Shown piece by piece: positions 8,226 through 64,000 of a stretch of DNA of 64,000 bases. The notes beneath the pieces were generated by a model. The model worked only from the letters and a program-made list of their open reading frames with translations. It did no database searches and had not been told where the DNA came from. Location of the stretch: positions 15,978-79,977 of the forward strand of contig JAEOTP010000015.1 in assembly GCA_016839765.1 (NCBI GenBank), given 5' to 3'. Source of the stretch: Promethearchaeota archaeon (GTDB lineage Archaea; Asgardarchaeota; Lokiarchaeia; Sigyniarchaeales; SOKP01). The stretch's first letter is position 1; every line of letters starts with the position of its first letter. A program made the position numbers and the translations under genes.

Positions 8226-8266
8226 TAAAAGAAAATTAAAACTAATATTATGAGGAGAAGTATAAA

Positions 8267-9673: not shown

Positions 9674-9734
9674 TTTAATCTTTTTTTATTTACTTTTTAT
9701 TCCTGATTTTTTAATTATCCTAATTTAAATTCAA

Positions 9735-10028
9735 TTATCGTTCGGTATATCCTACAAACCCTCCTATTAGCACTAATATTCCTCCAATTATACTAGTGTA
9801 AATTATCATGATTATTCCTAAAACTACAAATAGTATCCAATTCAGAGGAATAGGATTGTTTGGTCGAATTATACTTAATAATATAATGACAGCAATAACT
9901 ATAGCAACAATTAACGTAATTAGCTTAACAGTATCTAAATTTCTTTGATCGAATCCCATTATTGCTTCTATTAATGATATTGCCCCTCCAATACCTCCTA
10001 AAAGTTTCATTAAATCCTCGTTTCGCAT
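9735..10028 (-). CDS. Small membrane protein (about 3 TM segments), unknown function
   Basis: 97 aa, mostly hydrophobic (IGGAISLIEAIMG, LITLIVAIVIAVIILLSII, ILFVVLGIIMIIYTSIIGGILVLIGGFVG). Confidence 0.5.
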   Translation of the reverse strand: MRNEDLMKLLGGIGGAISLIEAIMGFDQRNLDTVKLITLIVAIVIAVIILLSIIRPNNPIPLNWILFVVLGIIMIIYTSIIGGILVLIGGFVGYTER

Positions 10029-10217
10029 TTTTTCTGAGTATTTAAGCTATAATTTAATTAAGTCTATAATAAAAATTCTTAATAAAAAATCTAATGATTT
10101 TTCTCAAATAATAATAAATATCTAATTAGTATTCATGCCTATATTTTTTACAAAAATGGCAATTATTTTGACTATATATTCAAAAGATTTATAACTTAGT
10201 TAATTCCAACTAGAGAT

Positions 10218-10237
10218 CAACGACTTTTTTGTCGTTG
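10218..10237. promoter_or_regulatory. Perfect palindrome CAACGAC-N6-GTCGTTG in the divergent region upstream of cooF
   Basis: Read directly. It is the only G+C-containing dyad in an otherwise very AT-rich 330-bp intergenic region, about 120 nt upstream of the cooF start. Confidence 0.3.
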
Positions 10238-10356
10238 TTTAGAAAAACTAATAAAGGTGAAATTCAAACACCTAAACTTAAAACCAATCTAAATATAAAA
10301 AATTATTTTTTATAAAAAAAAATTAAAACTAAATTTAAAATGAGGGAAGTCCAAAA

Positions 10357-10965
10357 ATGAAGACCGTATATGTAATACCAGAACATTGTATTGGATGTAA
10401 ACATTGTGAAATTGCTTGTTCAGTAGAACATTCAGAATCAAAAAATCTTTTTGCTGCAATTTTTGAAGAACCCTTTCCTACTCCAAGAATTCATGTAATG
10501 CCTTCTGTTGGAATATTGACCTATCCGGGTAAATGTCGACAATGTTACCCAACACCATGTATAAATGTATGTCCTTCAGGAGCAATAAGTAGAGATAAAG
10601 AAACAGAAACTATCCTTTTAAATGAAGAAAAATGTATTGCGTGTGGTATGTGTGCTATAGCCTGCCCTCTTGATGCGATTACTTTTCATCCATCTTGGAA
10701 GGTCTCTTTAGATAGGGAAGTTGCCATTAAATGTGACAATTGTCAAGAGCGTATTAGTGTTGGATTGAATCCAGTGTGCGTTGATGCATGTAAAACAATG
10801 GCTCTTAATTATGGAGATATTAACGAGATTATAAAAGAGGAAAGAAAAACAGTTGCTCAAAAAGTTGCAGCAGTAGAGACAGAAATTCGACCTGAAATTC
10901 CTGGATTAATAAAGTTGTGGCGTGATTTGGGTTTCTCTATGATGCAGGTAGGTGTGGAAAAATGA
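10357..10965 (+). CDS. cooF: CooF-like 4Fe-4S ferredoxin (CODH electron-transfer subunit)
   Basis: Several CxxCxxCxxxC(P) motifs ('CIGCKHCEIAC', 'CIACGMCAIACP', 'CDNCQERI'). Its stop overlaps the cooS start (ATGA). Confidence 0.7.
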   Translation: MKTVYVIPEHCIGCKHCEIACSVEHSESKNLFAAIFEEPFPTPRIHVMPSVGILTYPGKCRQCYPTPCINVCPSGAISRDKETETILLNEEKCIACGMCAIACPLDAITFHPSWKVSLDREVAIKCDNCQERISVGLNPVCVDACKTMALNYGDINEIIKEERKTVAQKVAAVETEIRPEIPGLIKLWRDLGFSMMQVGVEK

Positions 10966-12863
10966 AAAGGGAAATTATTTTAGAAAGGACAATAGATACA
11001 GCTGCACAAGAAATGTTAGAAAAAGCAACTGAAGAGCATATTGATACAGCTTGGGATAGATATGAAGCACAAGAACCACAATGTGGTTATGGATTACTTG
11101 GTATTTGTTGTAGAAATTGCGTTATGGGTCCTTGTCGAATTGATCCTTTTGGAAATGAGCCACAGAAAGGAGTGTGTGGTGCTGACGCGGATACAATCGT
11201 TGCTAGAAATCTTGCGAGAATGATTGCTGGAGGAGCGGCAGCGCATTCTGATCATGGTCGAGACATAGTAGAAGTTCTTCATTTAACTGCTGAGGGTAAA
11301 ACACAAGGATATCAAATAAATGATGAAGAAAAATTGAAACGAATTGCCCAAGAATATAGAATAATTACAGATGAAAGACCTAAAGAGGAAATAGCCAAGG
11401 AATTAGCAGAAAAAGCAATGGAAGAATTTGGGATGATTAAAAATACCATTCAATTTGCAGAACGAGCACCAGAGAAAAGAAAGGAGTTATGGAAAAATCT
11501 TGGAATTTGGCCACGAAGTATTGATAGAGAAATTGTTGAAATAATGCATCGTACTCATATAGGAGTTGGGGCAGAAATTGCGAGTCTATTATTACATGGC
11601 TTAAGAGCCTCTCTTAGTGATGGTTGGGGTGGATCAATGCTAGCTACAGAATTCAGTGATATTTTATGGGGGACTCCAAAACCAAAGGAGAGTACGGTAA
11701 GCCTTGGAGTGTTAAAGGAAGATCACGTTAATATTATTGTACATGGTCATAATCCTGTTTTGTCTGAAGTAATTGTAGATGCTGTTAGAGATCCTGAAAT
11801 GATTGAATTAGCAAAACAGAAAGGAGCTATTGGAATTAATATTGCTGGAATTTGTTGTACCTCAAATGAACTATTGATGAGAAAAGGGATTCCTGTTGCT
11901 GGAAACTTCCTGGTACAGGAATTAGCACTTATTTCTGGAGCTGTAGATGCTATGGTTGTAGATTATCAGTGTCTTATGCCCTCTTTACCATCAATTGCTA
12001 ATTGTTATCATTCAAAAGTAATAACTACCTCTCCAAAAGCTCAGATTCCTGGAGCCACTCACATTGAATTCGATCCTGAACATGCTTATGATATTGGAAC
12101 TAAGATTGTGAAAGAAGCTATTGAAGCCTATGAAAACAGAAACCCTAATCTTGTAAGAATCCCTAAGAAGATTGTAAAATTAATGGCTGGATTTTCTGCG
12201 GAAGCAATTCTGGAAGCTCTTGGTGGTACTGTGCAACCTTTAATTGATGCAATAGTAGCAGGAAAAATTCGCGGAATAGCTGCTGTAGTTGGTTGCAACA
12301 ATCCAAAAATTAAACATGATTTTAATCATGTTACCTTGACAAAACGATTAATTGAAAAGGATATTCTAGTTGTTGAAACTGGTTGTGCAGCAATAGCAAA
12401 TGCTAAGGCGGGTTTATTAGTTCCAGAAGCGGCAGATCAAGCTGGTGAAGGGTTAAAGGAAGTCGCAAAAAGTCTTGGGATACCTCCTGTTTTGCATATG
12501 GGTTCATGTGTTGATATAAGTAGAATTTTGAACGTTGCCGCTGCTATCGCAAACAAGTTAAATGTAGATATTAGCGACTTGCCGGTTGCTGGTGCCGCTC
12601 CAGAATGGATGTCTGAAAAAGCAGTTAGTATTGGAGCCTATGTTGTTTCTTCGGGAATATTTACAGTTCTTGGTGCTATTCCTCCTGTATTAGGAAGTAA
12701 AGGAGTAACAGAACTTCTCACACAAGGATTAAAAAACGTCGTAGGAGCTACTTTCGCTGTTGAACCAGATCCAGAGAAGGAAGCAGAATTAATAATTAAT
12801 CATATTAATGAAAAGCGAAAAGCTCTTGGATTAAAAGAAACACCAATAGAAACTGTTATGTAA
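10962..12863 (+). CDS. cooS: Ni,Fe carbon monoxide dehydrogenase catalytic subunit, CooS type
   Basis: 633 aa. 'CGYGLLGICCRNCVMGPCRI' (B/D-cluster cysteines), 'IIVHGHNP', 'GICCTSNE' and 'MGSCVDISR' are the conserved C-cluster ligand regions. Confidence 0.9.
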   Translation: MKREIILERTIDTAAQEMLEKATEEHIDTAWDRYEAQEPQCGYGLLGICCRNCVMGPCRIDPFGNEPQKGVCGADADTIVARNLARMIAGGAAAHSDHGRDIVEVLHLTAEGKTQGYQINDEEKLKRIAQEYRIITDERPKEEIAKELAEKAMEEFGMIKNTIQFAERAPEKRKELWKNLGIWPRSIDREIVEIMHRTHIGVGAEIASLLLHGLRASLSDGWGGSMLATEFSDILWGTPKPKESTVSLGVLKEDHVNIIVHGHNPVLSEVIVDAVRDPEMIELAKQKGAIGINIAGICCTSNELLMRKGIPVAGNFLVQELALISGAVDAMVVDYQCLMPSLPSIANCYHSKVITTSPKAQIPGATHIEFDPEHAYDIGTKIVKEAIEAYENRNPNLVRIPKKIVKLMAGFSAEAILEALGGTVQPLIDAIVAGKIRGIAAVVGCNNPKIKHDFNHVTLTKRLIEKDILVVETGCAAIANAKAGLLVPEAADQAGEGLKEVAKSLGIPPVLHMGSCVDISRILNVAAAIANKLNVDISDLPVAGAAPEWMSEKAVSIGAYVVSSGIFTVLGAIPPVLGSKGVTELLTQGLKNVVGATFAVEPDPEKEAELIINHINEKRKALGLKETPIETVM

Positions 12864-14325: not shown

Positions 14326-15288
14326 ATGAACTTCAAAATAATTATCTATGGTCAAGAGGGTGTAGGAACCGGTACTTTTCTTAAGAAGTATGCTAAAACT
14401 CCTATACATGTAGATGATGAAATAGAAGAGATGAGGAGACCGTTCTCTGATACAATATATTACAATATAAGAAAAGAGTTCGATGAAAAATATACTGTAA
14501 GTTCCATAATGAATGAAATTAAAAATATTTACGATAACGCCTTACACAAATACAGTAATAGCATTCTTAATGCAGAATTGTTTATAAATCCAGACATACA
14601 AAAGGCATTTGGATTTAAAATAAAAATATCACCTGAGATTGATTGGTTATCTTTTATATTTGATTATAATGGTTTGAAAATAGTATGTAGAGGTTCTATC
14701 AAGACAGAAATAGCGAAAGATTTTTTTAAAGTCCATGGAACGGCTCTGGAATTAATTAATTTCTTCAAGAACTTTAATTATTCTGTAGAATTAATTGACC
14801 AGACAGAAACTAGTTCGTTTTCTACAAAGTCAGATAAGGAATTAATAGTTGGAGCAGATTTTTTCCTTAAAAAGATTTTGGTTGATGAAAATACCATTAA
14901 TTTACAAATTTGGCATATCACAAGCGAGGAAAGATTTCAATTTTTAATACCAACCTATATAAAAGGTTCCTTAGGAGCCATCTTAATATTCGATATTACA
15001 AATTCTAAAACATTATATCATTTAATCGAGGTTATTCGAATTGTTAAAGAAAATGTTGGTAATATTCCAATTATATTGGTTGGGAATAAAATTGATTTAA
15101 AAAAATCAAGAGAAGTTTTTAAAGAAGAAGGAAATTTATTTAAAGAAACATATAGTTTAGCCTCTTACATAGAGATTTCCTCTAATTTGGGATATAATAT
15201 TGAAACTGTATTTATAGAACTTGTTAAATTATTACTTGAATATACGCAGACAAACCAAAAGGATGGATTAAGCATTCCGAATCTCTAG
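14326..15288 (+). CDS. Rab-like small GTPase fold with degenerate G1/G3 motifs and a ~140-aa insertion (probable pseudo-GTPase)
   Basis: G1 is 'GQEGVGTGT' (the P-loop Lys is replaced). Residues 173-206 'IVGADFFLKKILVDENTINLQIWHITSEERF' align with Rab 'TIGVDF...LQIWDTAGQERF'. G4 'NKID' is intact and G5 is 'SSN'. Confidence 0.7.
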   Translation: MNFKIIIYGQEGVGTGTFLKKYAKTPIHVDDEIEEMRRPFSDTIYYNIRKEFDEKYTVSSIMNEIKNIYDNALHKYSNSILNAELFINPDIQKAFGFKIKISPEIDWLSFIFDYNGLKIVCRGSIKTEIAKDFFKVHGTALELINFFKNFNYSVELIDQTETSSFSTKSDKELIVGADFFLKKILVDENTINLQIWHITSEERFQFLIPTYIKGSLGAILIFDITNSKTLYHLIEVIRIVKENVGNIPIILVGNKIDLKKSREVFKEEGNLFKETYSLASYIEISSNLGYNIETVFIELVKLLLEYTQTNQKDGLSIPNL

Positions 15289-33044: not shown

Positions 33045-36005
33045 CTAAAAAAAAGCATCTAACTTCTTAGTTTCAATCTCTTTTTTTGATCTTTTTTGAT
33101 ACCCTTTATATATAATCTCTTCAAATTCAATATTCAAAGCGTCCAATACCTGTTCTAGTGCTGATTGTAAAAGATCTCTATATTTTGACACATCTAAATC
33201 CTGAAATTTTGCTAATTCCAGAACCTTCGCTCCAGTCTTGTCATTGCTTTTAATAAAACTTATTGTTTCCCCCTTTTGATACTTTTTTCCAGTGGCTTTA
33301 TGATGTTCTTTAGCTGCTCTTACATGTTGAGGAATTACCTTATCATATCTACTAATATCTTTCTGTATACTAATATTAATAGTGTAATCTTCTAAGTTAA
33401 ATGCATCAGGTTTACCTATTTTATTTCTATTATCCTTTATAATTTCAATTATTCTCTTTCTTGCTTTCTTAAATTCCTGATCATTAGTTACATTTTTTAA
33501 GATATCCAATATCTCATTGAAAACCTTTTTGATAAAATCCGGAGTATTTTTCTTTTTAGCCACTAATCCTTTTATATCAATATATTTCGTATCCTTATAT
33601 ATACCTACATAATTTTTTTTTCTCTGAGAAAGTGCTAAGAATTGGTATGTTTTTTCCTCTTCTAAATCTAAATCTAACTCTTTTTTGCTCCATTCAGATA
33701 TTTCTTTCATTTGTTGTTTCGTTGGGTTCGCTAAAAACACCGAGTCTGTATCGCCATATAATACTTCTACTCCTAATTCCTCTGCTTTTTTAATAGTCTG
33801 TTTGATTGAATATTGACCTATCCCAGTAGTACTTTCAGCAACTGGTAAGCAAAACAATGGAAAGTTTTGACTACCAAAAACTCCATAGGACCCATTTATA
33901 AATACTTTAAGAGCTTGTTGAATTGTTTGATAATAGCTCCTCTGTTTGGGAGAAGTATTTTTATCGCTTGATTTAGGTTTGAAAAATTTCACTCTAATGT
34001 CTCGGAAAAATCCTACAACATACGCAAATATTCCCATCTTATGTGTACATATATGATAAGGTGTTCCTTTCACAAAATTATTTTTATCATCTTCATGAGG
34101 ACAGAGTACAGTTTCATAAGAAAGATTAGATTCTTTAATAATAGAAGGATATAGGCTGGCAAAATCCATAACAACAACATTATAATGAATTCCGGGTACA
34201 GGTGGAACAACATAAGCTCCAAGAAATTTTTCATCATCAAATTTAGACATTAAGGCTCCACCTTTTTTTAATTCTGAGATCTCTGATCGCCTTGGAATGA
34301 GATATTCCTTTCTGCGGTGTTCAAAATAGAAGATACTCTGGATCCAAGTTGAAATTTGACGTCTAACCATTTCATGAATTGGCAATTTAGTTATCCTACA
34401 CAATAAAATGATTAAATTCCACACTAATGAATTATTGAACTGTGTCAATTCCAATGTTAAAATGGAATCTTTTAGATTGTACCACGTGAGAATATCATAT
34501 TCCATTTCATAAATTTCTTCTTCATGCTCGTATTTTTTTCTACCTAATAATGCTGCACTTATCGCATTTAGCGAAGCACTTTCATATGCTCCACCAAATG
34601 CATAACCAGAAATACTTCTATTAAAGAAAAAGTTAAATAAATCAATATGGACTCCCTTTCTGAGATCGCAATCTGATTTTGAAAGTAATCCATATCCTCT
34701 TTTTACATGTATAGGATTTAAATCTCTATCAATTTTTAATTTGTCTGCTCGATGAGACATATAATTCAGATCAAAATTATCTCCATTAAAGGTAATTATT
34801 ATCGGATATTCCCATAAAATCCTGAAAGTCTCCTCTAATAACTCCTTTTCATCTTTAAAATAGAAAAGTTGAGCATCAGAAGGAAAATCTTTATGAACTT
34901 TCCGATATGAGAAGCCCTCCCTTTCTAAAACATAAACAAACTTGAGTCCATCATTTGAAACAAATGAAACGCTAATTATCTCTTGTTTTGCGAGTTGAGG
35001 ATCAGGTATAATAAAATCTTCTGGTCCTAAATTAACTTCAATGTCCATTGCTAAACGCTTCACATCGGGTATTGGTGTAAGGAAAATATTCAAAAATTTC
35101 TCAGAAAATTCTTGTATCTCTGGAGATTCATCTTTAAAAACATTTCTAAGTTCGCTAGCCATTGTTTTTGATTCTTCTGAATCTTCTTCAAAACTTATTT
35201 TCTCAATTTTTCCATTCTTAATTTTATAAATTAGTCCAGGAATTAATTGTATATCGTATATATAATTCAAGTGGTATCTAATATCTGCCTCCCAGGCTTT
35301 AATATCATTTTTACCTAAAATATTTTTTATATTTAAACCTGAACCACCAATATTTGTAGGAGTTTTACCATAGATTTTTGAAATCTCGATTTCTTTATCA
35401 CTGATCAAATCATAACGCTTTATTTCCTCAAATCGCTTAAATCCGTCGTACTCCGTTATTTTCTTTTGTATTACATGCTCATTAATTCTTTCTTCATAGT
35501 ATAAATTTTTTAATTCCGATATTGGCTCCTTACTTAAACAGTATGGTTCATGGCCAGTTGTATCAATCCAGATCCTTATTTCATCTGAATCTAGATCATA
35601 AAATTTACAATAAGCTTTATTTTGCCCACCATCATAATCAACGTCGAGCAATAATCCTCTTTCTAGATTTTGAATAAGTTCTCCTTTTTTATTCAGATAG
35701 CGTATATATTTTGAGGAAACTGATTCACGAAATATTTTTTCCACCTTTATATTACCCTTTTTCAATCCAAAGGGTTCGGGATTTCCTTTAAAGAATAATT
35801 TCTGAGGAATTGATTTTAATTGAGACTCTTGTATTAAAATCTCTTTTTCTTCTTCAATATCATCTTTTTCAATTATTTTTTCTTCTAATGAGTCTTGTTC
35901 ATAAGTTCCTTTTTCTACCTTCGGTTTATCATCAACAAATGAAATAAGAGACTTTTGCTTTTGATCTGGGGTTTTTTCCTTATCAGATTTTTTGGAGCTT
36001 GGCAA
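33045..36005 (-). CDS. polB: Family B DNA polymerase (canonical catalytic motifs) with a Lys/Glu-rich N-terminal extension
   Basis: Exo I 'LAMDIEV', motif A 'DFASLYPSII', motif B 'KVFINGSYGVFG', motif C 'LYGDTDSVFL'. C-terminal 'KKLDAFF' is PIP-box-like. TTG start (no ATG within the first ~280 codons). Confidence 0.92.
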   Translation of the reverse strand: MPSSKKSDKEKTPDQKQKSLISFVDDKPKVEKGTYEQDSLEEKIIEKDDIEEEKEILIQESQLKSIPQKLFFKGNPEPFGLKKGNIKVEKIFRESVSSKYIRYLNKKGELIQNLERGLLLDVDYDGGQNKAYCKFYDLDSDEIRIWIDTTGHEPYCLSKEPISELKNLYYEERINEHVIQKKITEYDGFKRFEEIKRYDLISDKEIEISKIYGKTPTNIGGSGLNIKNILGKNDIKAWEADIRYHLNYIYDIQLIPGLIYKIKNGKIEKISFEEDSEESKTMASELRNVFKDESPEIQEFSEKFLNIFLTPIPDVKRLAMDIEVNLGPEDFIIPDPQLAKQEIISVSFVSNDGLKFVYVLEREGFSYRKVHKDFPSDAQLFYFKDEKELLEETFRILWEYPIIITFNGDNFDLNYMSHRADKLKIDRDLNPIHVKRGYGLLSKSDCDLRKGVHIDLFNFFFNRSISGYAFGGAYESASLNAISAALLGRKKYEHEEEIYEMEYDILTWYNLKDSILTLELTQFNNSLVWNLIILLCRITKLPIHEMVRRQISTWIQSIFYFEHRRKEYLIPRRSEISELKKGGALMSKFDDEKFLGAYVVPPVPGIHYNVVVMDFASLYPSIIKESNLSYETVLCPHEDDKNNFVKGTPYHICTHKMGIFAYVVGFFRDIRVKFFKPKSSDKNTSPKQRSYYQTIQQALKVFINGSYGVFGSQNFPLFCLPVAESTTGIGQYSIKQTIKKAEELGVEVLYGDTDSVFLANPTKQQMKEISEWSKKELDLDLEEEKTYQFLALSQRKKNYVGIYKDTKYIDIKGLVAKKKNTPDFIKKVFNEILDILKNVTNDQEFKKARKRIIEIIKDNRNKIGKPDAFNLEDYTINISIQKDISRYDKVIPQHVRAAKEHHKATGKKYQKGETISFIKSNDKTGAKVLELAKFQDLDVSKYRDLLQSALEQVLDALNIEFEEIIYKGYQKRSKKEIETKKLDAFF

Positions 36006-36220: not shown

Positions 36221-36568
36221 TTATTGACTCGTTCTATTTTCTTTAATAATCTTCTTTATCTCTTCTAAAAGGAGTTGTTTTTCAGCAATAAACCAATGTA
36301 ATTTTGATTTTTCAGGGTGTTCTTGATGAATTGTTTCAGCAAGCTTTCTAATTTCTTCCTCAAGGGGTTTAATAACTTCTCCATTCACATCATCCCTAAT
36401 TAACAACACCAAATTATCAGTTTCGAGGGGTTTAATATCATATCCATTCTTTACATTTTTATTTATTGTAACACATAATTCGGCAAGAAACCAAACGCTT
36501 TTTTCATAACCTTCATGTGATTTATATCTTTGAAACGCCAATACTTCTACATCTTCTTTTGTGAACAA
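36221..36568 (-). CDS. Hypothetical 115-aa protein
   Basis: ORF with a TTG start. No motif recognised. Confidence 0.4.
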   Translation of the reverse strand: MFTKEDVEVLAFQRYKSHEGYEKSVWFLAELCVTINKNVKNGYDIKPLETDNLVLLIRDDVNGEVIKPLEEEIRKLAETIHQEHPEKSKLHWFIAEKQLLLEEIKKIIKENRTSQ

Positions 36569-36770
36569 TTTTTTTTAAACAACTCCTTCATTAAATAATT
36601 TAAACGTTAATCTTATTATCAAAAAAGAAAGTTTTACATTTAATTATTTGTATTGAGATTTATAAGCTGTTAAAACCACAAAATTAAAAATTCATTGTAT
36701 TTTAATAGTATTATTAGAGTATAATTATTTTCAAATTAAGCCTCCGTGGCTTAGTGGTAGAGCAGCAGAC

Positions 36771-36799
36771 TGTGAATGATTAAAGCTTTCTCTCTGCAC
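36771..36799 (+). other. tRNA intron 1 (29 nt) at non-canonical position 32/33
   Basis: A 4-bp helix, GCAG (36765-68) with CUGC (36794-97), is flanked by two identical 3-nt bulges, ACU (36769-71 and 36798-800). The outer helix (3 bp) and inner helix are weak, so this is a relaxed BHB. Confidence 0.6.
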
Positions 36800-36826
36800 T
36801 TGTAATCTGCCGGTCGTGGGTTCAAG

Positions 36827-36856
36827 TATTCAGAGCGTTTGGTTCTGAGTTGAAAT
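36827..36856 (+). other. tRNA intron 2 (30 nt) in the T-loop at position 59/60
   Basis: Textbook hBHBh': T stem, then a 4-bp helix UUCA (36821-24) with UGAA (36851-54), with 3-nt bulges AGU and AUU, then an 8-bp intron helix 36828-35 / 36843-50. Confidence 0.8.
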
Positions 36857-36978
36857 TCCCACCGGGGGCTTTCTTAATTTACTACTCCTTCTAACCAAAT
36901 ATTTTAAAGAAAGCCTTAAATCAAGTAATATTATAAATCTTTAAGTTAATATTTAGATCAAACCTTTAAATCTCGAAA

Positions 36979-39686: not shown

Positions 39687-40298
39687 ATGGTTGAGTTGAA
39701 TAAATTCATAGAAGAGTTAAAAAGTTCACGAAATATTGTTCGGATAACGGTAGTAGGAGATGGTGCGGTAGGGAAAACAACTTTAGTCCGAGCACTTCTT
39801 CGAAAAACTAAAAATTGTTCTGGAAATCATTCAAATATTAATTTAATAGAGGAAAAGGAAATTAAGCGTACTCCCTTCATAGAGATAGAATCTTGGACAT
39901 ATAAAGATTTGATAATTCAGTGCTATGATTTAGCAGGCCAAAGAATTCCAGGTGCTCATCCTTTAGATATTTTACAAAGTCAAGTTATTAGTTCAATAGA
40001 TATTTTCATTTTTGTTTTCTCAGTTGATAGATATAAGTCTTTTGAAAACCTTAATAATTGGAGGACATTAATGAATTTAAATAACATGAGAAGGGATAAT
40101 AACGGATTAATACTTGTTGGAAACAAAATAGACTTAGAGAGAAATGTATCAAGAGGACTAGTACAATTAATTGCTGGGGAAGACAGATACTTTCATTCAT
40201 ATGTAGAAACAAGTGCAACAAAGGAAATTGGAATTGAAGAATTATTAGATGAAATTGTTAATGTTGGAAAAAAAATCTTAACATTTTACAGCTCTTAA
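39687..40298 (+). CDS. Ras-superfamily small GTPase with all G motifs intact
   Basis: G1 'GDGAVGKTT', G3 'DLAGQ', G4 'GNKIDL', G5 'ETSAT'. Confidence 0.85.
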   Translation: MVELNKFIEELKSSRNIVRITVVGDGAVGKTTLVRALLRKTKNCSGNHSNINLIEEKEIKRTPFIEIESWTYKDLIIQCYDLAGQRIPGAHPLDILQSQVISSIDIFIFVFSVDRYKSFENLNNWRTLMNLNNMRRDNNGLILVGNKIDLERNVSRGLVQLIAGEDRYFHSYVETSATKEIGIEELLDEIVNVGKKILTFYSS

Positions 40299-50470: not shown

Positions 50471-53400
50471 ATGGAATCCAAAAATATTAAAAAATCTAGT
50501 GAAAGAATTGAAAAAGCTACCACATTTCTCACAAGGTTGTGGTGGTTTTTTCTTTTTCTAATCGGGATTCCTTTAGTAATTGCTACTGTTAGCTATTTTA
50601 TTATCCAATATATCATAAAAGATGTTTATTTTTCTATAGGGCTTGCTGTAATTGTATATATGTTTTCAATTTTCTTTTTCTATAAAAGTTTTGACCAATA
50701 TCGAAAAAAACCTCTTTTTATTAACAATCAAAACAACCTTTCTGCCAGAATTCACATACTTTTTATAGTTAGCATCCTATCTTTAGTGGTTACCCCTATT
50801 TTCATTTTGGTTGCACCGCAGGGATACTATTTTGAATTATTTCCTTTAATTTCGTTCTGCCTTTTATATAACATTATTTATTACTATTATTACTTTCAAC
50901 CTGTAGAATATTTTGATGTATCTGAATCAAGATTCAAGCGTAAACTTAGTTTCAAATCAACTTTAAAACAATTTCATAATATAGTGATTTTGATAAATTT
51001 CATTATCCATGTATTTTTTTTGATTTATACTTATTATACTAAGTTATTATGGCTAATATTGGTAACTTTAGTTACCAATATATTTTTTTATATCTTTACC
51101 CTACTATCTACAATTAAGCTAAAGAAAAAGATAAGGGATGCTATCGAGAAAGGAGTACTATTTCAAGAATATATAATCAAATTTAAGCAAAAATTTTCTG
51201 TATCAATTATCAGTCTTTCTTTTTTATTATTAATACAATTACCATTTGATATCCTTCTTTTTAATACTTTATCTGGTGTTGTTTATACCAATTTAGATTA
51301 TATATTATTTGCGTTTGGAGCTATAATTTTCATTTTCTTATATTTAAAACTAAGGATTTATATTTCAATACATTACAAAAGAAATCTATTGATATTAAAT
51401 GGGAATAAATTAAATAATTCAAATCAAGAACCTTCAGATTTCTTAATTAAATATCAGAAATGGAACATGATATTATCAATATTTTTCATTGTCTTTACCT
51501 CTTTATTTTCTTTAGGAATTAATTTCCCAATTATAATTGTAATCAGCATTCCAGTAATCATTATTTCTACTTATTTTGAGCAAAAAGCAAATTATTGCCC
51601 AAAGAAATATAGTCGATATGTATATCTTTTAAGTAGTGTAATATTATTGGGATTTGGTATTTTTTGGATTTTACCCTCCTTTTTCGATACTCTGAGTTTA
51701 GAGATTCAATTAATTATATTTCTTGTGAGTTTCTATTTGGATTTACAAATTTTTATTCAATATGACTATTTTGATAGGAATAAAATTATATTTATACAAC
51801 ACCTATTAGCTTTTACTTGTTTCTTAGTAATTACTTACTCATTTTATCCAATTATTTCATCAATTTATTTTGATTTTCTTATTGAACCCTTATTGATTAA
51901 TATCGTCAATATCCTTTTCTATGCATTATTATCTCTCTTAGCATTATTAGGAACATTCTATTATTTATATTTTCGATATTTTAGGAAAAACCAATGGAAG
52001 AGTTTCAATCTAATTTTAAATATCACTATAATCTCTATTGAAATCCTTTTATTTGCTCTTATAAGTTTGAAGATTTTCATTTCTATGGATGTGATTGCAT
52101 TTATTAACTATGTTTTAGTTTTTACTATTCTTTTACCATTAATTTTTGATTTATTTATCGGATTTAACTATATTCTTGGAATAAATACTGCTAAAAAAAG
52201 CTTCAAACAATTATATTCTTCTAGTTGGATTTTAGTTTTAATGATTTTTACTTTTATTTTTTACTTTACTTTTAATAATTTTATATTCCTAATTGCTGAT
52301 TTATTATATCTCTCTGCTCTTTCTCAGATTTTATTAAAATTTGGAGAAGAAATTGACCAAATTTCTCACGAAACTTTTAGTAAGGTTATGAAATTTAATT
52401 CCGTTTTTATTATTATAGAGATTTCTTGCTTAATTTTTTCAATATCGTATATAAATTTCGCTTTTATCGGAATTATCAATAATATTTTACTCTCTTGCTA
52501 TATTACATTGATTTTTAATGCATTTTTGTGTAATATTCTAAAAGAAAAACTGTTTTCAAAATCAATAGTAGTATTAATTAATGAAATTTGTTTATTATTT
52601 ACTACAGGACTCACTTTTTATTATCTATATCAATATACTTTCGGATCTTATTATATTTATGTTCTACCAATCCTGTTTTCCAGCCTTTTCTTTTTCCTCC
52701 CAATATATTATACCAAATCCTTAAAAAAGTATCCAAATTTGATAAAAAATATTACCACCGTAGCCAGTATAGTATTTTCTATTTCTTTATCCCTCATACC
52801 CACAATCTTGAGCTTGGAATTTGTAAGATTAGGTAAATATGTTGATTTAATTACCATTTTCAATTTAACAGCTTTCATTATTTATGGAATTTTACTTTTT
52901 ATTATAGCTTTCTCGCGCAAGCTGAAAATTAGGGAAAAAAGAATAAAATTAGTATTAATAATACAGATATTAATCGAATTTATTTTGGCAGTAACAGCAG
53001 TATTTTATTACGTGAGTATTGCTTTAAAGGGTACCCTTTTTGAGTATTCAGTTCCTTTAGTAGCCACCTCAGCATTTCTTTTTATTCCTTTTATATTCTT
53101 ATATAAAAAGCAATTTATTGGTATCAAAATAAATAAATTGCTTCTTTTTTCTAATTTTATTTTTCTCTGGGGTAGTATAATATCAATTCCATCCATTTAT
53201 AGTATAGAATTTTTCAGATTGGGTAATTATTTGGAATTTTACTATATGTTAATAATAATTATCGTATTATTCTATGGATTTTTGAAATTTTTATATCCTT
53301 TATCTAAATACATCGAAATTAAAGATAAATTTAATTATATAATATACACATTACAAATTTTCACTTGGTTTATTATTACTATTGCTATTTCTTTAATTAT

Positions 53401-56400
53401 TCCTTTTAACTTTTTAATCCAATCGCTTAATTGGTTAAATACTTTAGTAGTATGCAGTACATTTTTATTATTTTTTGGATTAAATATTATTAATCTCCCT
53501 CAGATAGAAAATTTCAAACAGATAGTTTTTGAAAATAAAAAAAGCAAGTTAGATTTTTATAAAATTTATAAAATTTATGAATATTACAAAAATATAATAT
53601 ATTTTGGGTTAATTTTCTCAGTTTCTTCCTTAATATATTCATTAATTCAATCTTTGAATTTACCCTACCTAATTTTTCAGTCTAGCAATAGTTTGATGAC
53701 AATTTCTTTTGATTTAGGTATTTTTTCAGGTATTTCTCTAATTATATTTCATCTGAGTAATTTACTTATTGAAATTGAATTTAGGAAAACAAAAGAAATA
53801 ATTGAAACACTTTTATGGTTAGCTATAAAATTCAATCTACTATTAATTATATCATTATTCCCTTTTCAGATCTCAATTATTAATAGGATTTTTTTAATAA
53901 TTTTAATATTTACCGTATTAAGTCCAATTACGATTAAATTTTTTAGAAATCACTTTATCATTTTAGAAGAAACTTATTTAAACACTAAAAAAATTATAGG
54001 AATCTTATTTTTTATTTCATTATTAGGTTTTTTTCTTGATTTTTTGTGGAATATTTATATAAGTGTACCATATTTTTGGAGTAATACTTATGTTTTACTT
54101 TCTCTAATCATTAGTATAGCTTTATTATTTTCTAACTATTATTTTTCAGTTTTTAATGATTATATCGAGAAAAAATCTGAGCTTAATATTTATGGACTCT
54201 ACTTTCAATCTTTTCTAATTTTTATAATTTTATTATTCATGAATATAGGCCCCTCTTTAGTTCTTTTAGTGATCATTTTTATAATCCTCTATCGGAAAAG
54301 GATTAGGAATATATACTTACGTTTAGTCAACTACCTGGTAGGTAGCTATGTGTGTTTGATAGTAGTGAATATATTTATAATTAGTTTCGATCTACTATCT
54401 ACATTTATATATATTCATCCTGGATTTTATGTATGTGTTTATATATTATCATTTATTTTAATATTATTCATATCAATTATTCTAAATATCAAGAAGATCA
54501 ATGTTTTAGAAGAATATTTATTAGATTTATTAATTCCTAGTTTAATTTTTACGTCAATATTAATTTTTAATCTCATTCCTCTTTTTTATAATATAACAGT
54601 TTCTGTTGCAATTCTCTTACTTTTATTAAGTATCTTCTTTTATCGTCAAGAAGATAAAAGGTATATATGGTTTATTCGCCCTTGTGCCTTATTATTTTTA
54701 TTTGACCTAATAAGTATTAGCTCTTATTTCATAATATTTAGCTTACCTCTTTATTATGAATACAATCTGATTCTAAGCTCTACACTTACCTTTAGCATAA
54801 TAGGTTTTTGTTTTGCCTTGTTTTTTCATGATTTACGAGGTAAACTAAAAAGGAGATTAATTTCCATTATTCTTATATTAAGTGTAGCTAGTTCTTTCAC
54901 ATTTTCTTATCTTCTCTTAAAAATTTCGTTCTCTCTCACTCTATCTGATATTTATCCATGGATTATTGCTGGAAATATTGCTATTATTCTTTCATATATT
55001 GCCATTGGAATTTATCAATGGAAAATATCATGGGCAATTTGGAAAGCAGGCTATTGGATTTGGATATTTACCCCTATAATTAATTATTTAATAATTGCTG
55101 AATCTTTTACTGAAATTAATATCTATACCAATGCTCTGAATTTTTTTGGGATACCTATTTATGGCTCACATTTGATTGCTTTTGTTATTTGTTTATTAAT
55201 ATCTTTACCTTTCTGGTATACTTGGATAAAAGAACATTTTAACCAAGTCTTATTTATCATTTGGGGATTAAGTTTATTTTTGATCTATTGGTTTAGTCAA
55301 AATGCATTTTTTGGATCTACCTTTTTAATTAATTTATCATTTGTAGGAATATCTATAATCTTTTTAATGCCTATTTTTTATAGGTTAAGACTCTGGAAAA
55401 TACTTTCGATTTTGTGGCTAGCTTTTACTAGTATTTTAACAATTTTCGTTTCCTATCTATTTTTAGAAACTAAATTGGGATTAGACATGATCATATCAAT
55501 GGATTTAATTCTAATCGGATTTCTATTTATAATTTTCTCTTTCTTTCCAAATATAAGGGCATTAAAAAATATTGTACTAATTATCGCTTATTCTATCGCA
55601 ATAACTGGTATCTTTCTAACAATATTGAATTTAATTTTTTCAATTACTTACAACCTGCCTGTGTCAATCAATATGTCTTTCATTATAATAGCATTTAGTC
55701 TATTTACTTCTCGAATATTGAAATTAAATCGAAAATTATTCAATTTTTTAATTTCTACAATTTTAACTATTAACTTTTCACTTTTAACATTCTTTACTTT
55801 TAGTTTAATTCCAAATTTTGAGCTATTCGCTCTATTTTTCGCTATAAGCGTTTGTGGAGGCTCCCTTCTAATATTTAATCGCTATAGGATGATTTCCCCT
55901 ATTAAAAAGATTATACCATTAATGATTCTTTCTACTGGTGTTGCATTAACATTGTCTTCCTTAATTTATATTTTTATACCGAATTCCTTTTTTATTGTAT
56001 CTGCCACATTTATTGCTGTAATTCTATTATTAAATTACCCTACTTTAGAGTATATTCGCCATATATTATTGTATTTAGTTCCAATACCTTTCTGTTTGGT
56101 TATTTTACACTTTTTGTCATTAATAGGACTATTTCAACCATTATTAAATTTAATTTTAATTGGATTGATTTTATATACCTCAATTTTTCAAATTTTTACT
56201 TATTTGAAATATGGTACGGTTAAGATAGTTAATCTTTTGTCTTTTATATTGAATTCAACCTATCTTTCATTATTAATTACAATTCTTAGTCCTGTTACGA
56301 TTTTATATCAAATTCTCGAATTTTGTATAATTTGGTCAATTTTAATAATATTTTGTATTAACTATCTTGAAAGGGCAGGTCAGGAACTTGTTAAAGAAAA

Positions 56401-58987
56401 AACTATTTCGACTTTTTTAAGAATTAGTAGCTTAATCACAGTATTGCTTTATTTTGAAATAGCTGTTCTAATTTTTGTGGTATTAAATGAGTTCTTGGTA
56501 TTAGAAATTACGATAAATATTGTAGCATTCTTTGGAACTTTATTTCTATTATCATTTCTAGATATTATTTTATTGAAAAGAGTGAATAAGAAAATAATTT
56601 ACCCAATTAACATTCTCAGCTACTTATTTATTTCAATTAGCTTTTTTATCTTTTTCAATCAATTTTTAGCTATAAATGTGCAATTAATCTTCTTAAATCT
56701 AATAATATTATTCACACTGCAGTTCTATACCGTTTATATTATTTTTGCTTTCTTAAAACAATATGAGAGTTTTGATAAGGATAAATTAAGTACTTATCGC
56801 AAAATTATTCAAACAATTCAAGTAAATATTATATTTTTCATTATGGGTTTATTTGGATCCTCTTATTTCACAACACTTATCTTAGATAGTGAACCGATTC
56901 TTAGTGGGCTGCCTTCAATTTTCCTATTCTTAATGATATTTACTTTCATACTTTTTACTCTTAATCATATAGTTAGGAATAAATTTAGGCAACACATTTT
57001 ATTTGGATACTATATCATATTTTTCATTAATTTCGCATTCTTTTGGGTCTCTTTTATAATTATTTTTAATCTGATTAACACGCTTTCCATTAGTCTATTA
57101 TTATTTACTATTACAATATTAATTTCTTATCTTGTTTATTCAGTTGGTAATATTTACAAGGAAAAAGTAAAAATAGGGCAAATTAATAAAATATATTCAT
57201 TAATCATCTTCTTTCTTTACTTAGAGATTTCAATAATCCTCTTTGGATTATCTTATATATATCTTAATATATTTGAAAGCATTCTTATTTCACAAATAGC
57301 CTTATTTTTGATTTCCATAATGGAAAGGTATATAATACGAAAAGTTAAAACTACTATAGTTTTTATCCTCCATACAATAAGTTATTTTAATATTAGCTGG
57401 TCTCTCTTTGTTGTTATATTTCAATTTACTCAAAATATTTTTGATTTAAATCTAATTTTCTTTATTCTTATGCAGTTTTATACAAATAATTCGTATTTTA
57501 TTACTAGATCTAAATTTAATTTATCTAAAGAACCTGATTTTAAGAAGTGGAAGCTAATTAGACAGAAAGTAATTGGATCTTGTTTTTATTTAACTTTATT
57601 ATTATATATTCTAAATTATTTAATACTCGTTATTACCGAAATTCAATTAATTATTTTAATTTTAGGCGTAATAATTCATGGATTAATGTATATTGATAAG
57701 TTTATCTTTAAATTCTTAGCTGAACTTTCAAAGTATGTAATAATTTTCTCAATTTTCTTGATATTAGGCACCTCATTTTTATATTCTTTAGGTTGGGTTT
57801 TTATTTTTTCATTTCAAATAATCCCCTTAATAATTCTTTTAGTTTTACTCGAAATAACATATCTCATAAAATTATTTGAATTATGGGACGTTAAAAAAGT
57901 CAACTTTTCTAAAATTAGAAATCCCTTGATAAATTTGTACTATATGAACTTTTTAATATGGCCGTTTTTTTATTTAGGCTTCGAAATTTTTAATATCTTA
58001 GCTATAATGTTGATCTTTTCAATTATCTTGATATTTTTATCTGTAATAGATATACGTATCAATACAATTAATCAAAAATTAAGAATAACAATATTAAAGA
58101 CTGGTTATATTATGTTTGTCTCATTATTATCTTTAGAAATATTTTTCTTTCTGGAATTTGTAATTCAACCAAATCTTCTATTCAATTTTTCAGTATCAGG
58201 ATTATTTTTCCTCATTACAATTGGATTCATAATAAAGCCATTCAAAAGACATAGAGCTCTTTCATTCTTTTATTGGTTATCTATTTTTTCACTGATAAGT
58301 CTAATAATATATTTTGCTTATTTAAGTGGTTGGAGTTTCACAGTATTGCTAGTGGGCATTGTATTATATCCTTTCATATTTATGCTTGAAGAATTAAAAG
58401 AATTATTTAACCATTTGTTAGAATACCTTCATAAGTTTATTTTAAAGATTAAACGCATTATATCTTTTGTTTATAGAAAATTTATTAATTTCCTTAAAAA
58501 TAACTTTAGAATAATCCAGATAATACTCTCTATATTTATTGGAGCAATAACAGGTATAACTTTCTCAGATATGGTATTAAACATCTTAGATCTATATCAT
58601 GCAACACTGCTATCTCTTGCTACCTTTGGAATTGCTTATGCTATTACAGATTACGTCTGGTATCATACGTACGTTAAAAAATTAGGTGATATTAAACAGA
58701 TATTTAGGCAAAAATTAAAAATCTTTATTATAATATGGATAAGTTTTTCCAGCTTTATTTTTGCTTTAATATTACCTATAATAGAATCTATTCTGTATCA
58801 AATTTTCCTTATTTTAATACCATTTTGGGGATTAGGTGCGATATTAATCTGGGTCGTAAATAGAAAAGAAGCTAAAGAAAAAATTTCAGTTAAAGTGAGA
58901 TTTTTTATTACCTTATCTACAATAATCTTATTTATTGTGTGGATAGGTATTATATTGCTTTGGTACTTTACTGAGGTTCAAACTTAA
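50471..58987 (+). CDS. Giant (2,838 aa) polytopic integral membrane protein with internal repeats, unknown function
   Basis: An uninterrupted 8.5-kb frame in AT-rich DNA. The translation is nearly continuous 20-25-aa hydrophobic segments separated by short basic/polar loops. Diverged repeats are visible (see finding). Confidence 0.85.
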   Translation: MESKNIKKSSERIEKATTFLTRLWWFFLFLIGIPLVIATVSYFIIQYIIKDVYFSIGLAVIVYMFSIFFFYKSFDQYRKKPLFINNQNNLSARIHILFIVSILSLVVTPIFILVAPQGYYFELFPLISFCLLYNIIYYYYYFQPVEYFDVSESRFKRKLSFKSTLKQFHNIVILINFIIHVFFLIYTYYTKLLWLILVTLVTNIFFYIFTLLSTIKLKKKIRDAIEKGVLFQEYIIKFKQKFSVSIISLSFLLLIQLPFDILLFNTLSGVVYTNLDYILFAFGAIIFIFLYLKLRIYISIHYKRNLLILNGNKLNNSNQEPSDFLIKYQKWNMILSIFFIVFTSLFSLGINFPIIIVISIPVIIISTYFEQKANYCPKKYSRYVYLLSSVILLGFGIFWILPSFFDTLSLEIQLIIFLVSFYLDLQIFIQYDYFDRNKIIFIQHLLAFTCFLVITYSFYPIISSIYFDFLIEPLLINIVNILFYALLSLLALLGTFYYLYFRYFRKNQWKSFNLILNITIISIEILLFALISLKIFISMDVIAFINYVLVFTILLPLIFDLFIGFNYILGINTAKKSFKQLYSSSWILVLMIFTFIFYFTFNNFIFLIADLLYLSALSQILLKFGEEIDQISHETFSKVMKFNSVFIIIEISCLIFSISYINFAFIGIINNILLSCYITLIFNAFLCNILKEKLFSKSIVVLINEICLLFTTGLTFYYLYQYTFGSYYIYVLPILFSSLFFFLPIYYTKSLKKYPNLIKNITTVASIVFSISLSLIPTILSLEFVRLGKYVDLITIFNLTAFIIYGILLFIIAFSRKLKIREKRIKLVLIIQILIEFILAVTAVFYYVSIALKGTLFEYSVPLVATSAFLFIPFIFLYKKQFIGIKINKLLLFSNFIFLWGSIISIPSIYSIEFFRLGNYLEFYYMLIIIIVLFYGFLKFLYPLSKYIEIKDKFNYIIYTLQIFTWFIITIAISLIIPFNFLIQSLNWLNTLVVCSTFLLFFGLNIINLPQIENFKQIVFENKKSKLDFYKIYKIYEYYKNIIYFGLIFSVSSLIYSLIQSLNLPYLIFQSSNSLMTISFDLGIFSGISLIIFHLSNLLIEIEFRKTKEIIETLLWLAIKFNLLLIISLFPFQISIINRIFLIILIFTVLSPITIKFFRNHFIILEETYLNTKKIIGILFFISLLGFFLDFLWNIYISVPYFWSNTYVLLSLIISIALLFSNYYFSVFNDYIEKKSELNIYGLYFQSFLIFIILLFMNIGPSLVLLVIIFIILYRKRIRNIYLRLVNYLVGSYVCLIVVNIFIISFDLLSTFIYIHPGFYVCVYILSFILILFISIILNIKKINVLEEYLLDLLIPSLIFTSILIFNLIPLFYNITVSVAILLLLLSIFFYRQEDKRYIWFIRPCALLFLFDLISISSYFIIFSLPLYYEYNLILSSTLTFSIIGFCFALFFHDLRGKLKRRLISIILILSVASSFTFSYLLLKISFSLTLSDIYPWIIAGNIAIILSYIAIGIYQWKISWAIWKAGYWIWIFTPIINYLIIAESFTEINIYTNALNFFGIPIYGSHLIAFVICLLISLPFWYTWIKEHFNQVLFIIWGLSLFLIYWFSQNAFFGSTFLINLSFVGISIIFLMPIFYRLRLWKILSILWLAFTSILTIFVSYLFLETKLGLDMIISMDLILIGFLFIIFSFFPNIRALKNIVLIIAYSIAITGIFLTILNLIFSITYNLPVSINMSFIIIAFSLFTSRILKLNRKLFNFLISTILTINFSLLTFFTFSLIPNFELFALFFAISVCGGSLLIFNRYRMISPIKKIIPLMILSTGVALTLSSLIYIFIPNSFFIVSATFIAVILLLNYPTLEYIRHILLYLVPIPFCLVILHFLSLIGLFQPLLNLILIGLILYTSIFQIFTYLKYGTVKIVNLLSFILNSTYLSLLITILSPVTILYQILEFCIIWSILIIFCINYLERAGQELVKEKTISTFLRISSLITVLLYFEIAVLIFVVLNEFLVLEITINIVAFFGTLFLLSFLDIILLKRVNKKIIYPINILSYLFISISFFIFFNQFLAINVQLIFLNLIILFTLQFYTVYIIFAFLKQYESFDKDKLSTYRKIIQTIQVNIIFFIMGLFGSSYFTTLILDSEPILSGLPSIFLFLMIFTFILFTLNHIVRNKFRQHILFGYYIIFFINFAFFWVSFIIIFNLINTLSISLLLFTITILISYLVYSVGNIYKEKVKIGQINKIYSLIIFFLYLEISIILFGLSYIYLNIFESILISQIALFLISIMERYIIRKVKTTIVFILHTISYFNISWSLFVVIFQFTQNIFDLNLIFFILMQFYTNNSYFITRSKFNLSKEPDFKKWKLIRQKVIGSCFYLTLLLYILNYLILVITEIQLIILILGVIIHGLMYIDKFIFKFLAELSKYVIIFSIFLILGTSFLYSLGWVFIFSFQIIPLIILLVLLEITYLIKLFELWDVKKVNFSKIRNPLINLYYMNFLIWPFFYLGFEIFNILAIMLIFSIILIFLSVIDIRINTINQKLRITILKTGYIMFVSLLSLEIFFFLEFVIQPNLLFNFSVSGLFFLITIGFIIKPFKRHRALSFFYWLSIFSLISLIIYFAYLSGWSFTVLLVGIVLYPFIFMLEELKELFNHLLEYLHKFILKIKRIISFVYRKFINFLKNNFRIIQIILSIFIGAITGITFSDMVLNILDLYHATLLSLATFGIAYAITDYVWYHTYVKKLGDIKQIFRQKLKIFIIIWISFSSFIFALILPIIESILYQIFLILIPFWGLGAILIWVVNRKEAKEKISVKVRFFITLSTIILFIVWIGIILLWYFTEVQT

Positions 58988-62900: not shown

Positions 62901-64000
62901 TTATCCAATAAAACAAGATAAATTTCTTTGGTTAGATTTTTTCTTATAATCTCGCTTTAACAATTCCTCAAGTTCAGGAAATTTGAAAGGAAAAATATTT
63001 TCGAAAGCTCTCTTTAATAATTCAACGTACTTCTTTTGATCGTATTGATGTATCTTTTCATCATAGAGATCAGAGAGAATAACCTTCCGTTCAGGGAAAT
63101 CAGGATCGGCCTCTGCATTAAGAATAATATATCGTACATTTTTTCCAGGGGTTGCGATAATACCAGAATCTTCTAATTGTCTGGCAGCTACAGCTTGATA
63201 GGAGTTTACTTTATATGCTGATGGCTTACGAGAGATTCTTTGTTTGATTGTAAGCTCTTGGCGAGATATTTTCCCGGAATAGACTCTATCAGTATATTCA
63301 TAGAGTTTTCTTTTTGCCCTTGGAATCCTTTTTATAAACTCATCAACGGTTTGAGCGCCTTTGAATACATCAATAAAGGCACATTGGGCATCTTTCACAA
63401 TAGTGGGCATATCTCTGCGCCGAACTTCGATACCCCTAACTTTAATCTCTCCTGTACTTTTTATGCCCCAATAATGACTAAGAGCAGGAATATCTGGTTC
63501 AGCTCTAGAGGGAAGAAATACAATAATATTATATCTACCTTCCCAGCTCATTGGAATGCTTGTATGTTCCGATATTCTATCTGCAATTTTTTTAGTAATA
63601 TCCTCAAATTCCTCTGGTGATTTTCCCTTTGTATCTTGAAGCCATATGGAATCAACAATACCATGAATGATTTTGCAACTGTATGCTTCGGCAATTTCAG
63701 CTGCACGCATAAGAAATTCGCGTGCAAATGCACAAACGGTTTGATGAGCTTCAATTTTACCGAAGCGGGCATTTTTAAATCCTAAATATCCAAAACTTAC
63801 AACAAGCACCCATTTTAAGGCAATATCGGTAAATTTATAGCGAAGATTTCCTGTTTTTCGAACATATTCCTTATATTGCAACCTTTTTCTTAGAGGAAGT
63901 TTTATTGATTTTGAGATTATTCCTTCTCTTTTTGAGCAGATATGAAAATCCAATCCTGGTACTTTCATCCCTGTTCCATCATCTTTGCAGCATTTACAAT
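62901..64000 (-). CDS. Second family-B DNA polymerase paralog, C-terminal part (5' end outside the window), with a non-canonical motif C
   Basis: Motif B-like 'KWVLVVSFGYLGFKNARFGKIEAHQTVCAFAREFL' (compare Pfu-type 'KLLANSFYGYYGYAKARWY...SVTAWGR'). Motif C is 'IIHGIVDSIWL' instead of Y-x-DTD-S/G. The frame is open to nt 64000 (...CKCCKDDGTG precedes the listed Met). Confidence 0.8.
   Translation of the reverse strand, partial: CKCCKDDGTGMKVPGLDFHICSKREGIISKSIKLPLRKRLQYKEYVRKTGNLRYKFTDIALKWVLVVSFGYLGFKNARFGKIEAHQTVCAFAREFLMRAAEIAEAYSCKIIHGIVDSIWLQDTKGKSPEEFEDITKKIADRISEHTSIPMSWEGRYNIIVFLPSRAEPDIPALSHYWGIKSTGEIKVRGIEVRRRDMPTIVKDAQCAFIDVFKGAQTVDEFIKRIPRAKRKLYEYTDRVYSGKISRQELTIKQRISRKPSAYKVNSYQAVAARQLEDSGIIATPGKNVRYIILNAEADPDFPERKVILSDLYDEKIHQYDQKKYVELLKRAFENIFPFKFPELEELLKRDYKKKSNQRNLSCFIG

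Follow-up and report, generated by a model that had tools for sequence, protein, structure and literature searches.

Multiple and non-canonical tRNA introns were reportedly described in Crenarchaeota/Thermoproteales by Marck & Grosjean in 2003 and by Sugahara et al. in 2008. Position 59/60 is catalogued as one of the known non-canonical tRNA intron sites (PMC4090602). Among Asgard archaea, Atabeyarchaeia and Freyarchaeia carry introns in 92-95% of their tRNA genes, often non-canonical and multiple (PMC11291895). The splicing endonuclease of Asgard archaea is an (alpha-beta)2 enzyme and bears an L1 loop (PMC5829648), a feature that accompanies a broad range of substrates and allows relaxed bulge-helix-bulge (BHB) motifs to be processed (PMC5829648, PMC6379350).

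Here, I describe a tRNA gene in a 64-kb stretch of archaeal DNA (the whole of which is referred to as the window) that very probably gives rise to a functional tRNA-Thr(UGU) in an Asgard relative of Hodarchaeota, and whose two BHB introns, at positions 32/33 and 59/60, are predicted to be spliced by proteins. The position of the first intron is such that an apparent histidine anticodon, GUG, stands in the unspliced sequence.

The gene, its predicted product and its neighbourhood

The presence of a tRNA gene at 36740-36870 of the forward strand (tRNA positions 1-73) is well beyond chance: its 131 nt form a G+C island (50% G+C against 29% for the window), its precursor folds with a z-score of -2.9 relative to shuffles (minimum free energy, MFE, -48.6 kcal/mol), and its exons recur unchanged in many other genomes. 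Scanning the window for G+C islands returned no second tRNA-like one. Exon 1 (36740-36770, positions 1-32) comprises the 5' strand of the acceptor stem, the D-arm, the 5' strand of the anticodon stem and C32, and shows no differences in any ortholog carrying GCCTCCG among the matches listed. It is followed by intron 1 (36771-36799, 29 nt, site 32/33), which holds the His-like GUG at 36772-36774, and by exon 2 (36800-36826, positions 33-59), which opens with U33 and the anticodon UGU (36801-36803) and continues through the 3' strand of the anticodon stem, the variable loop, the 5' strand of the T-stem and the T-loop nucleotides 54-59. Intron 2 (36827-36856, 30 nt, site 59/60) has a strict hBHBh' motif, and exon 3 (36857-36870, positions 60-73) supplies U60, the 3' strands of the T-stem and of the acceptor stem, and the discriminator U73. 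All these features lie on the forward strand; a T-rich trailer without an encoded CCA follows. Placing intron 1 at 36772-36800 instead leaves the product unchanged, because a U follows both cut sites.

The preliminary description of this DNA had proposed that removal of two inserts restores a cloverleaf, and every base and coordinate that it gave proved correct when the sequence was read again. With both inserts deleted, ARAGORN folds the remaining 72 nt into a standard cloverleaf and calls it tRNA-Thr(tgt), its acceptor stem consisting of G1-C72, C2-G71, C3-G70, U4.G69, C5-G68, C6-G67 and G7-C66; the discriminator is the T at 36870 and the base at position -1 is an A (36739). The same 72 nt exist as an uninterrupted gene in the Promethearchaeia MAG WORC5 (locus L084), identical at 72/72 positions to the predicted spliced product. 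Its neighbours are those found in the window, a family B DNA polymerase and then a small conserved ORF on one side and a phosphodiesterase on the other, and the WORC5 gene is an intronless positional ortholog. The Hodarchaeota MAG DZ1B.205 (L024, accession prefix JBHLKA01) shares 90.6% identity with the window across 6.5 kb and has the same two-intron gene with a single base difference, located in the loop of intron 2.

Further relatives were collected in several ways. Searching one genome per species with a sequence pattern gave at least 120 matches; most of these were bacterial or archaeal tRNAs that share the D-arm and are otherwise unrelated, and several Asgard genes with the same exons were among the matches listed. 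When metagenome contigs were searched for introns at 32/33, 13 more loci were obtained, and a lookup of neighbouring proteins gave one match, on a 7.5-kb contig that begins within the tRNA gene. The locus is carried by the sample SRR14699982.

As to the surroundings of the gene in the window, the polymerase (986 aa) is encoded at 33045-36005, and the small ORF (115 aa) lies between it and the tRNA at 36221-36568 on the reverse strand. The position and sequence of this ORF are kept across the orthologous loci, the relatives starting with M(P)FTKEDV, and it has no family match in Pfam or NCBIfam. A family B DNA polymerase domain is also borne by a second ORF (62901-63968, reverse strand, 355 aa), which matches only the C-terminal part of the profile. 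Ras/Roc-family small GTPase genes, which are typical of Asgard archaea, are found at 14326-15288 and 39687-40298, both on the forward strand, the latter being followed by the gene of a 739-aa TPR protein. A CO dehydrogenase/acetyl-CoA synthase cluster extends over 7695-12863 (forward strand), with epsilon and beta subunits, a ferredoxin and the Prismane/CODH catalytic subunit. Finally, an uninterrupted ORF of 2838 aa (50471-58987, forward strand) has no match in Pfam or NCBIfam. Taken with the match to the Hodarchaeota MAG, the polymerase, the CODH/ACS subunits and the two GTPases mark the host as an Asgard archaeon.

Splice motifs of the two introns

The gene was scanned for BHB motifs in all geometries, each consisting of a central helix of 4 bp, either strand of which is followed by a 3-nt bulge, the cut being placed after the second nucleotide of each bulge. 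Intron 2 is the best candidate in the gene by a wide margin: its central helix, UUCA (36821-36824) with UGAA (36851-36854), pairs at 4/4 positions, the bulges are AGU (36825-36827, cut after AG) and AUU (36855-36857, cut after AU), the inner helix has 8 bp (36828-36835 with 36843-36850) and the outer helix is the 5-bp T-stem. The centroid fold of the precursor reproduces this strict T-arm motif. Among the matches listed there are 10 variants of the intron, each 30 nt long, and their aligned motif is 93.5% paired with 5 covarying pairs, against 26-56% when the registers are slid. The differences seen in the close relatives L024 and L130 fall within the loop or keep the pairing, as in the change of the U-G pair 36829-36849 to U-A. 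Thus the textbook motif that had been described for this site was recovered in all its parts, with covariation in agreement, and intron 2 is, on sequence and predicted fold, a putative archaeal BHB intron with a strict motif.

Intron 1 is of a different make. The 5' strand of its central helix is GCAG (36765-36768, positions 27-30, forward strand), followed by the bulge ACU (36769-36771, cut between C and U); the 3' strand is CUGC (36794-36797), followed by a second ACU (36798-36800), so that the 3' cut falls after 36799. The perfect pairing flanked by two identical ACU bulges, on which the original assignment of the site had been based, is thus present as described. Six registers allow a 29-nt deletion that leaves a 7-nt anticodon loop, and only 32/33 has a central helix paired at 4/4 positions; the 37/38 register, which would produce a tRNA-His, reaches 2/4, the very value that had been noted for it beforehand, and 33/34, 34/35, 35/36 and 36/37 reach 1/4 each. 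A 27-nt register at 36772-36798 (CAGA with UCUG) also has a 4/4 helix and was rejected for its 9-nt loop.

Both the MFE and the centroid fold of the precursor use the pairing with the intronic CUGC and present A36798-C36799-U36800 as a 3-nt bulge between two helices, whereas forcing the exon anticodon stem into the fold costs about 6 kcal/mol. Folding the anticodon-arm segment by itself (local MFE) gave structures that disagreed from one variant to the next, and these were left out of the evidence. Inside the intron, the inner helix is made of G36772-C36792, G36774-C36790, A36775-U36789 and A36776-U36788, with U.U mismatches. U36793 stands opposite the 5' ACU bulge, where A31 or the first base of the intron could be its partner; in relatives, the equivalent base is U, G or A. 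The opposing U36793 and the incompleteness of the inner helix together suggest a relaxed motif. Intron 1 would therefore fit a relaxed rather than a strict BHB motif, its 5' site being the less tidy of the two according to both sequence and fold.

A relaxed motif with weak flanking helices had been anticipated, and this holds as far as the motif is concerned. Two particulars do not stand: the register of the inner helix was off by one (G36772 does not pair with U36793), and the outer helix is longer than the 3 bp that are in register with invariant exon bases, for in the MFE and centroid folds it resumes after an AA bulge and gains about 10 further pairs with the region of the D-arm. Covariation cannot test this outer helix, since the exon bases there are invariant.

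It is in the intron itself that relatives are informative. Among the matches listed, 15 distinct variants, 23-29 nt long, occupy the exact 32/33 site, in genes whose spliced products are 0-5 nt away from that of the window, compensatory changes in the acceptor stem included. These introns are otherwise highly variable, yet their 3' end is CUG[C/U]-A-N in 15/15 cases, and the central helix is 100% paired throughout the listed variants. In the inner helix, 5/6 pairs are altered on both sides among the 15, examples being GUAGUA/UACUAC, GCAGUU/AACUGC, GAAGUA/UACUUU and CGGAU/AUUCG; that of the window, with 4/6 pairs, is the second weakest of the set. When the 15 listed variants are aligned in a fixed register, 93.3% of the cells are paired, against 24-52% with slid partners, and the observed covariation was reached in 0/500 shuffles. 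In a separate register test, pairs formed at 77/90 positions, the mean for shuffled introns being 38.6 +/- 4.5.

Other introns are found in the same gene and in its threonine counterparts. Three loci with the same exons (L022 at 1642-1744, L089 and L112) are without the 32/33 intron and carry instead an intron of 30-31 nt just 3' of an intact CUUGUAA loop; a motif at 38/39, in which UUGU pairs with GUAA or GUAG, fits it best, and its 3' ends (CUCUGUA[A/G]A) look like those of introns at 32/33 (CUCUGUAA). Along with the intronless gene of L084, these 38/39-like introns suggest, at the level of sequence, that introns may have been lost, gained or slid within one orthologous gene. In Asgard MAGs, genes for the sister isoacceptor tRNA-Thr(CGU), namely L009, L035, L099, L109, L119, L068, L090 and L103, carry introns as well, at several sites: within the anticodon stem, behind that stem or in the variable region, and in the T-loop. 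Only some of them are detected by ARAGORN.

Identity of the tRNA and the His-like GUG

The determinants reported for archaeal tRNA-Thr are G1-C72, C2-G71 and a third pair printed as C3-U70, with U73 being a determinant in H. volcanii and not in A. pernix (PMC9976931). The gene in the window, with G1-C72, C2-G71, C3-G70 and U73, matches this reported set. For archaeal tRNA-His the determinants are C73, C50-G64 and G29-C41 (PMC9976931), and none of them is present: the bases are U at 73, U-A at 50-64 and A-U at 29-41, and position -1 is occupied by A, the bacterial set being G-1 and C73. The identity elements that had been put forward in favour of threonine are thus found in the gene. Along the same line, its acceptor stem and D-arm are the same in the intronless Asgard Thr(UGU) and Thr(CGU) genes among the matches listed.

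One competing reading is a tRNA-His(GUG) with a canonical 37/38 intron at 36776-36804, in which exon 1 would provide the loop C-U-GUG-A-A. The unspliced sequence does read GCAGA-CUGUGAA; in the alignment to the Rfam tRNA covariance model, CUGUG fills loop positions 32-36 and the insertion comes after it; deletion of 36776-36804 also gives a cloverleaf in ARAGORN, called His(gtg); and the anticodon stem formed by the exons would be a good outer helix of 5 bp. Besides the poor central helix of that register and the missing histidine determinants, it is the relatives that speak against it. The intron starts with A in 12/15 of the listed variants, and an intron starting with A would, if cut at 37/38, put A at position 33, where U is universal, and would make anticodons of unrelated triplets. 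As far as sequences can tell, these 12 listed variants rule out the 37/38 reading, and in the intronless gene at the syntenic position the anticodon is UGU, the remainder of the tRNA being identical. A histidine tRNA is hence extremely unlikely, and the assignment of UGU, and not GUG, as the mature anticodon, made at the outset from the geometry of the intron, is upheld by the 72/72 identity with L084, by the A-starting introns in relatives with the same exons and by the Thr(tgt) call that ARAGORN makes for those relatives.

A tRNA-Asn(GUU) with a 35/36 intron, or a tRNA-Thr(GGU) with a 34/35 intron, are two more ways of cutting the same precursor. The first one owes its appearance to ARAGORN, which, with introns allowed, calls Asn(gtt) with an intron at 35/36 for the gene of the window after intron 2 has been removed by hand, and also calls Asn(gtt) for L095. 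Both registers have a central helix paired at 1/4 positions, the body of the tRNA is that of an Asgard tRNA-Thr, with D-arm and acceptor as in the intronless Thr(UGU) and Thr(CGU) genes, and the sequence of the intronless ortholog is that of the UGU product; the chance of either being right is vanishingly small, and tRNA-Thr(UGU) is retained.

Software deals poorly with this gene, as had been foreseen. ARAGORN, either by default or with introns allowed, had no hit in the whole window, and neither did Rfam at gathering thresholds. At a permissive threshold, the Rfam tRNA model matches 36741-36868 with 27.6 bits, the curated cut-off being 29, and its alignment, with insertions of 31 and 32 nt, makes GUG the anticodon. 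ARAGORN gets single-intron orthologs right when their intron starts with A, calling them Thr(tgt) with an intron at position 32. The single-intron ortholog at 6128-6228 of L095 is miscalled because its 32/33 intron starts with UGUAG. Default ARAGORN and curated Rfam therefore miss the gene and permissive runs return a wrong anticodon (Asn, or GUG and hence His), an annotation trap owing to which genomes of this lineage could seem to be without a tRNA-Thr(UGU), or could be credited with one spurious tRNA too many.

What, then, is the GUG at the start of intron 1? It is the beginning of an inner-helix strand (consensus GU[A/G]G...) placed after a U, the intron starting with U-GUG-A. Among the listed variants, three start with U and have a purine as the fifth intron base, and their apparent anticodons are GUG in the group of the window, GUA (Tyr-like) in L095 and ACG (Arg-like) in L124. 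Since the three mimic three different anticodons, GUG is not a conserved feature. I conclude from the compared sequences that it would be a chance by-product of the position of the intron, not a functional decoy, and that it would never be part of the mature tRNA. The "decoy His anticodon" of the preliminary description is right insofar as a GUG-like loop is present and misleads the tools; the word decoy is an overstatement for what follows by chance from a U-GUG-A start. In the U-starting lineages (window and L024, L095, L124), an occasional cut in the alternative register might yield a minor tRNA with the body of tRNA-Thr and the anticodon GUG, GUA or ACG, which would amount to a built-in, low-level His-to-Thr mistranslation or to a regulated second product of one gene; nothing supports this, and it must be considered very unlikely.

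Expression, processing and comparison with known systems

At 36672-36695 of the forward strand, 45-68 nt 5' of the gene, lies the element AAAACCACAAAATTAAAAATTCAT, present in a single copy in the window. Among 134 loci compared, this element of 21-24 nt, AAAACCRCAAAATTAAAAATT(Y)AT, is found 5' of the orthologous tRNA-Thr(UGU) in 17 and is absent elsewhere. A second conserved block, ACATTTAATTATTTGTATTGAG, is located farther upstream, at about 36635-36656, and both blocks are far more conserved than the intergenic DNA around them. Judging from their sequences, they are probably the promoter of the tRNA and, in divergent orientation, that of the small ORF.

The conservation of this upstream region bears on a further explanation, namely that the gene is a decaying or unexpressed copy, a pseudogene whose inserts are not spliced. 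Such a copy might be expected to show what is indeed seen here: an inner helix of intron 1 that is weak in the lineage of the window, a CCA that is not encoded while it is in several orthologs, and the silence of standard tools. It fits badly with exons showing 100% identity to their counterparts in genomes where the DNA of the flanking genes retains only about 70-75%, with splice-motif nucleotides that are intact and with changes in L024 and L130 that spare the pairing, or with the conserved upstream element. A pseudogene is accordingly an improbable reading, and a functional tRNA-Thr(UGU) gene is the preferred one. With regard to the 3' end in general, CCA is encoded (GGGGGCTCCA) in L022, L025, L093, L112, L122, L123, L125, L128, L132 and L133; it is not in the lineage of the window (GGGGGCTTTC, 36870-36880), L084, L095, L114 and L134.

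The pathway that can be proposed for the functional gene would start with transcription from the conserved upstream promoter. In the precursor, the T-arm intron (59/60) would fold into a strict helix-bulge-helix-bulge-helix, a step to which sequence, fold and covariation all point. In the anticodon arm, the same three kinds of evidence suggest that G27-G30, the 5' strand of what is to become the anticodon stem, would pair first with the CUGC close to the 3' end of intron 1. Such pairing would put the 3' splice site in the 3-nt bulge ACU, between C and U33, and the 5' splice site, after C32, would lie in a 3-nt bulge or in a small internal loop. As expected from established knowledge, the archaeal splicing endonuclease would cut both introns and an RtcB-type ligase would join the exons. 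The anticodon stem G27-A31/U39-C43 would then form, with a loop reading C-U-UGU-A-A, and CCA, as it is not encoded, would be added post-transcriptionally. A Pfam search of about 45 ORFs in the 64-kb window returned no splicing endonuclease, RtcB or CCA-adding enzyme.

Most of these traits have counterparts in the tRNA genes of Crenarchaeota/Thermoproteales (PMC4090602, PMC6379350): protein-spliced BHB introns, sometimes more than one per gene, introns outside 37/38 and also at 59/60, relaxed motifs handled by an (alpha-beta)2 endonuclease, and the refolding of a precursor in which one strand of a stem pairs first with the intron. Unlike those thermophilic Crenarchaeota, the host of the window is an Asgard archaeon close to Hodarchaeota with 29% G+C. 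Within the Asgard superphylum itself, Atabeyarchaeia and Freyarchaeia offer a similar case, in that there are introns which tRNAscan-SE misses and automatically derived tRNA sets are incomplete (PMC11291895); the reports on Asgard introns and endonucleases (PMC11291895, PMC5829648) give genome-wide counts, without this gene, this lineage or the misreading of an anticodon caused by a 32/33 intron.

Many non-canonical tRNA introns being already known in Asgard archaea, the two-intron tRNA-Thr(UGU) gene joins a known class and is not a new splicing mechanism, so that existing knowledge of tRNA splicing is left unchanged by it. What it adds is a set of orthologs with the same exons and either no intron, one at 32/33 only, one at 32/33 and one at 59/60, or one just 3' of the loop, a set which may help the study of how archaeal tRNA introns are gained, lost and moved. 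Outside archaea, the nearest likeness is offered by Cyanidioschyzon merolae and by the genomes of nucleomorphs (PMC3728597, PMC4090602), whose tRNA genes have BHB-dependent introns in the D-, anticodon- and T-arms, sometimes two or three per gene; those genes are eukaryotic, nuclear or nucleomorph, whereas the gene content of the window (family B polymerase, CODH/ACS, Asgard-type small GTPases) is archaeal.
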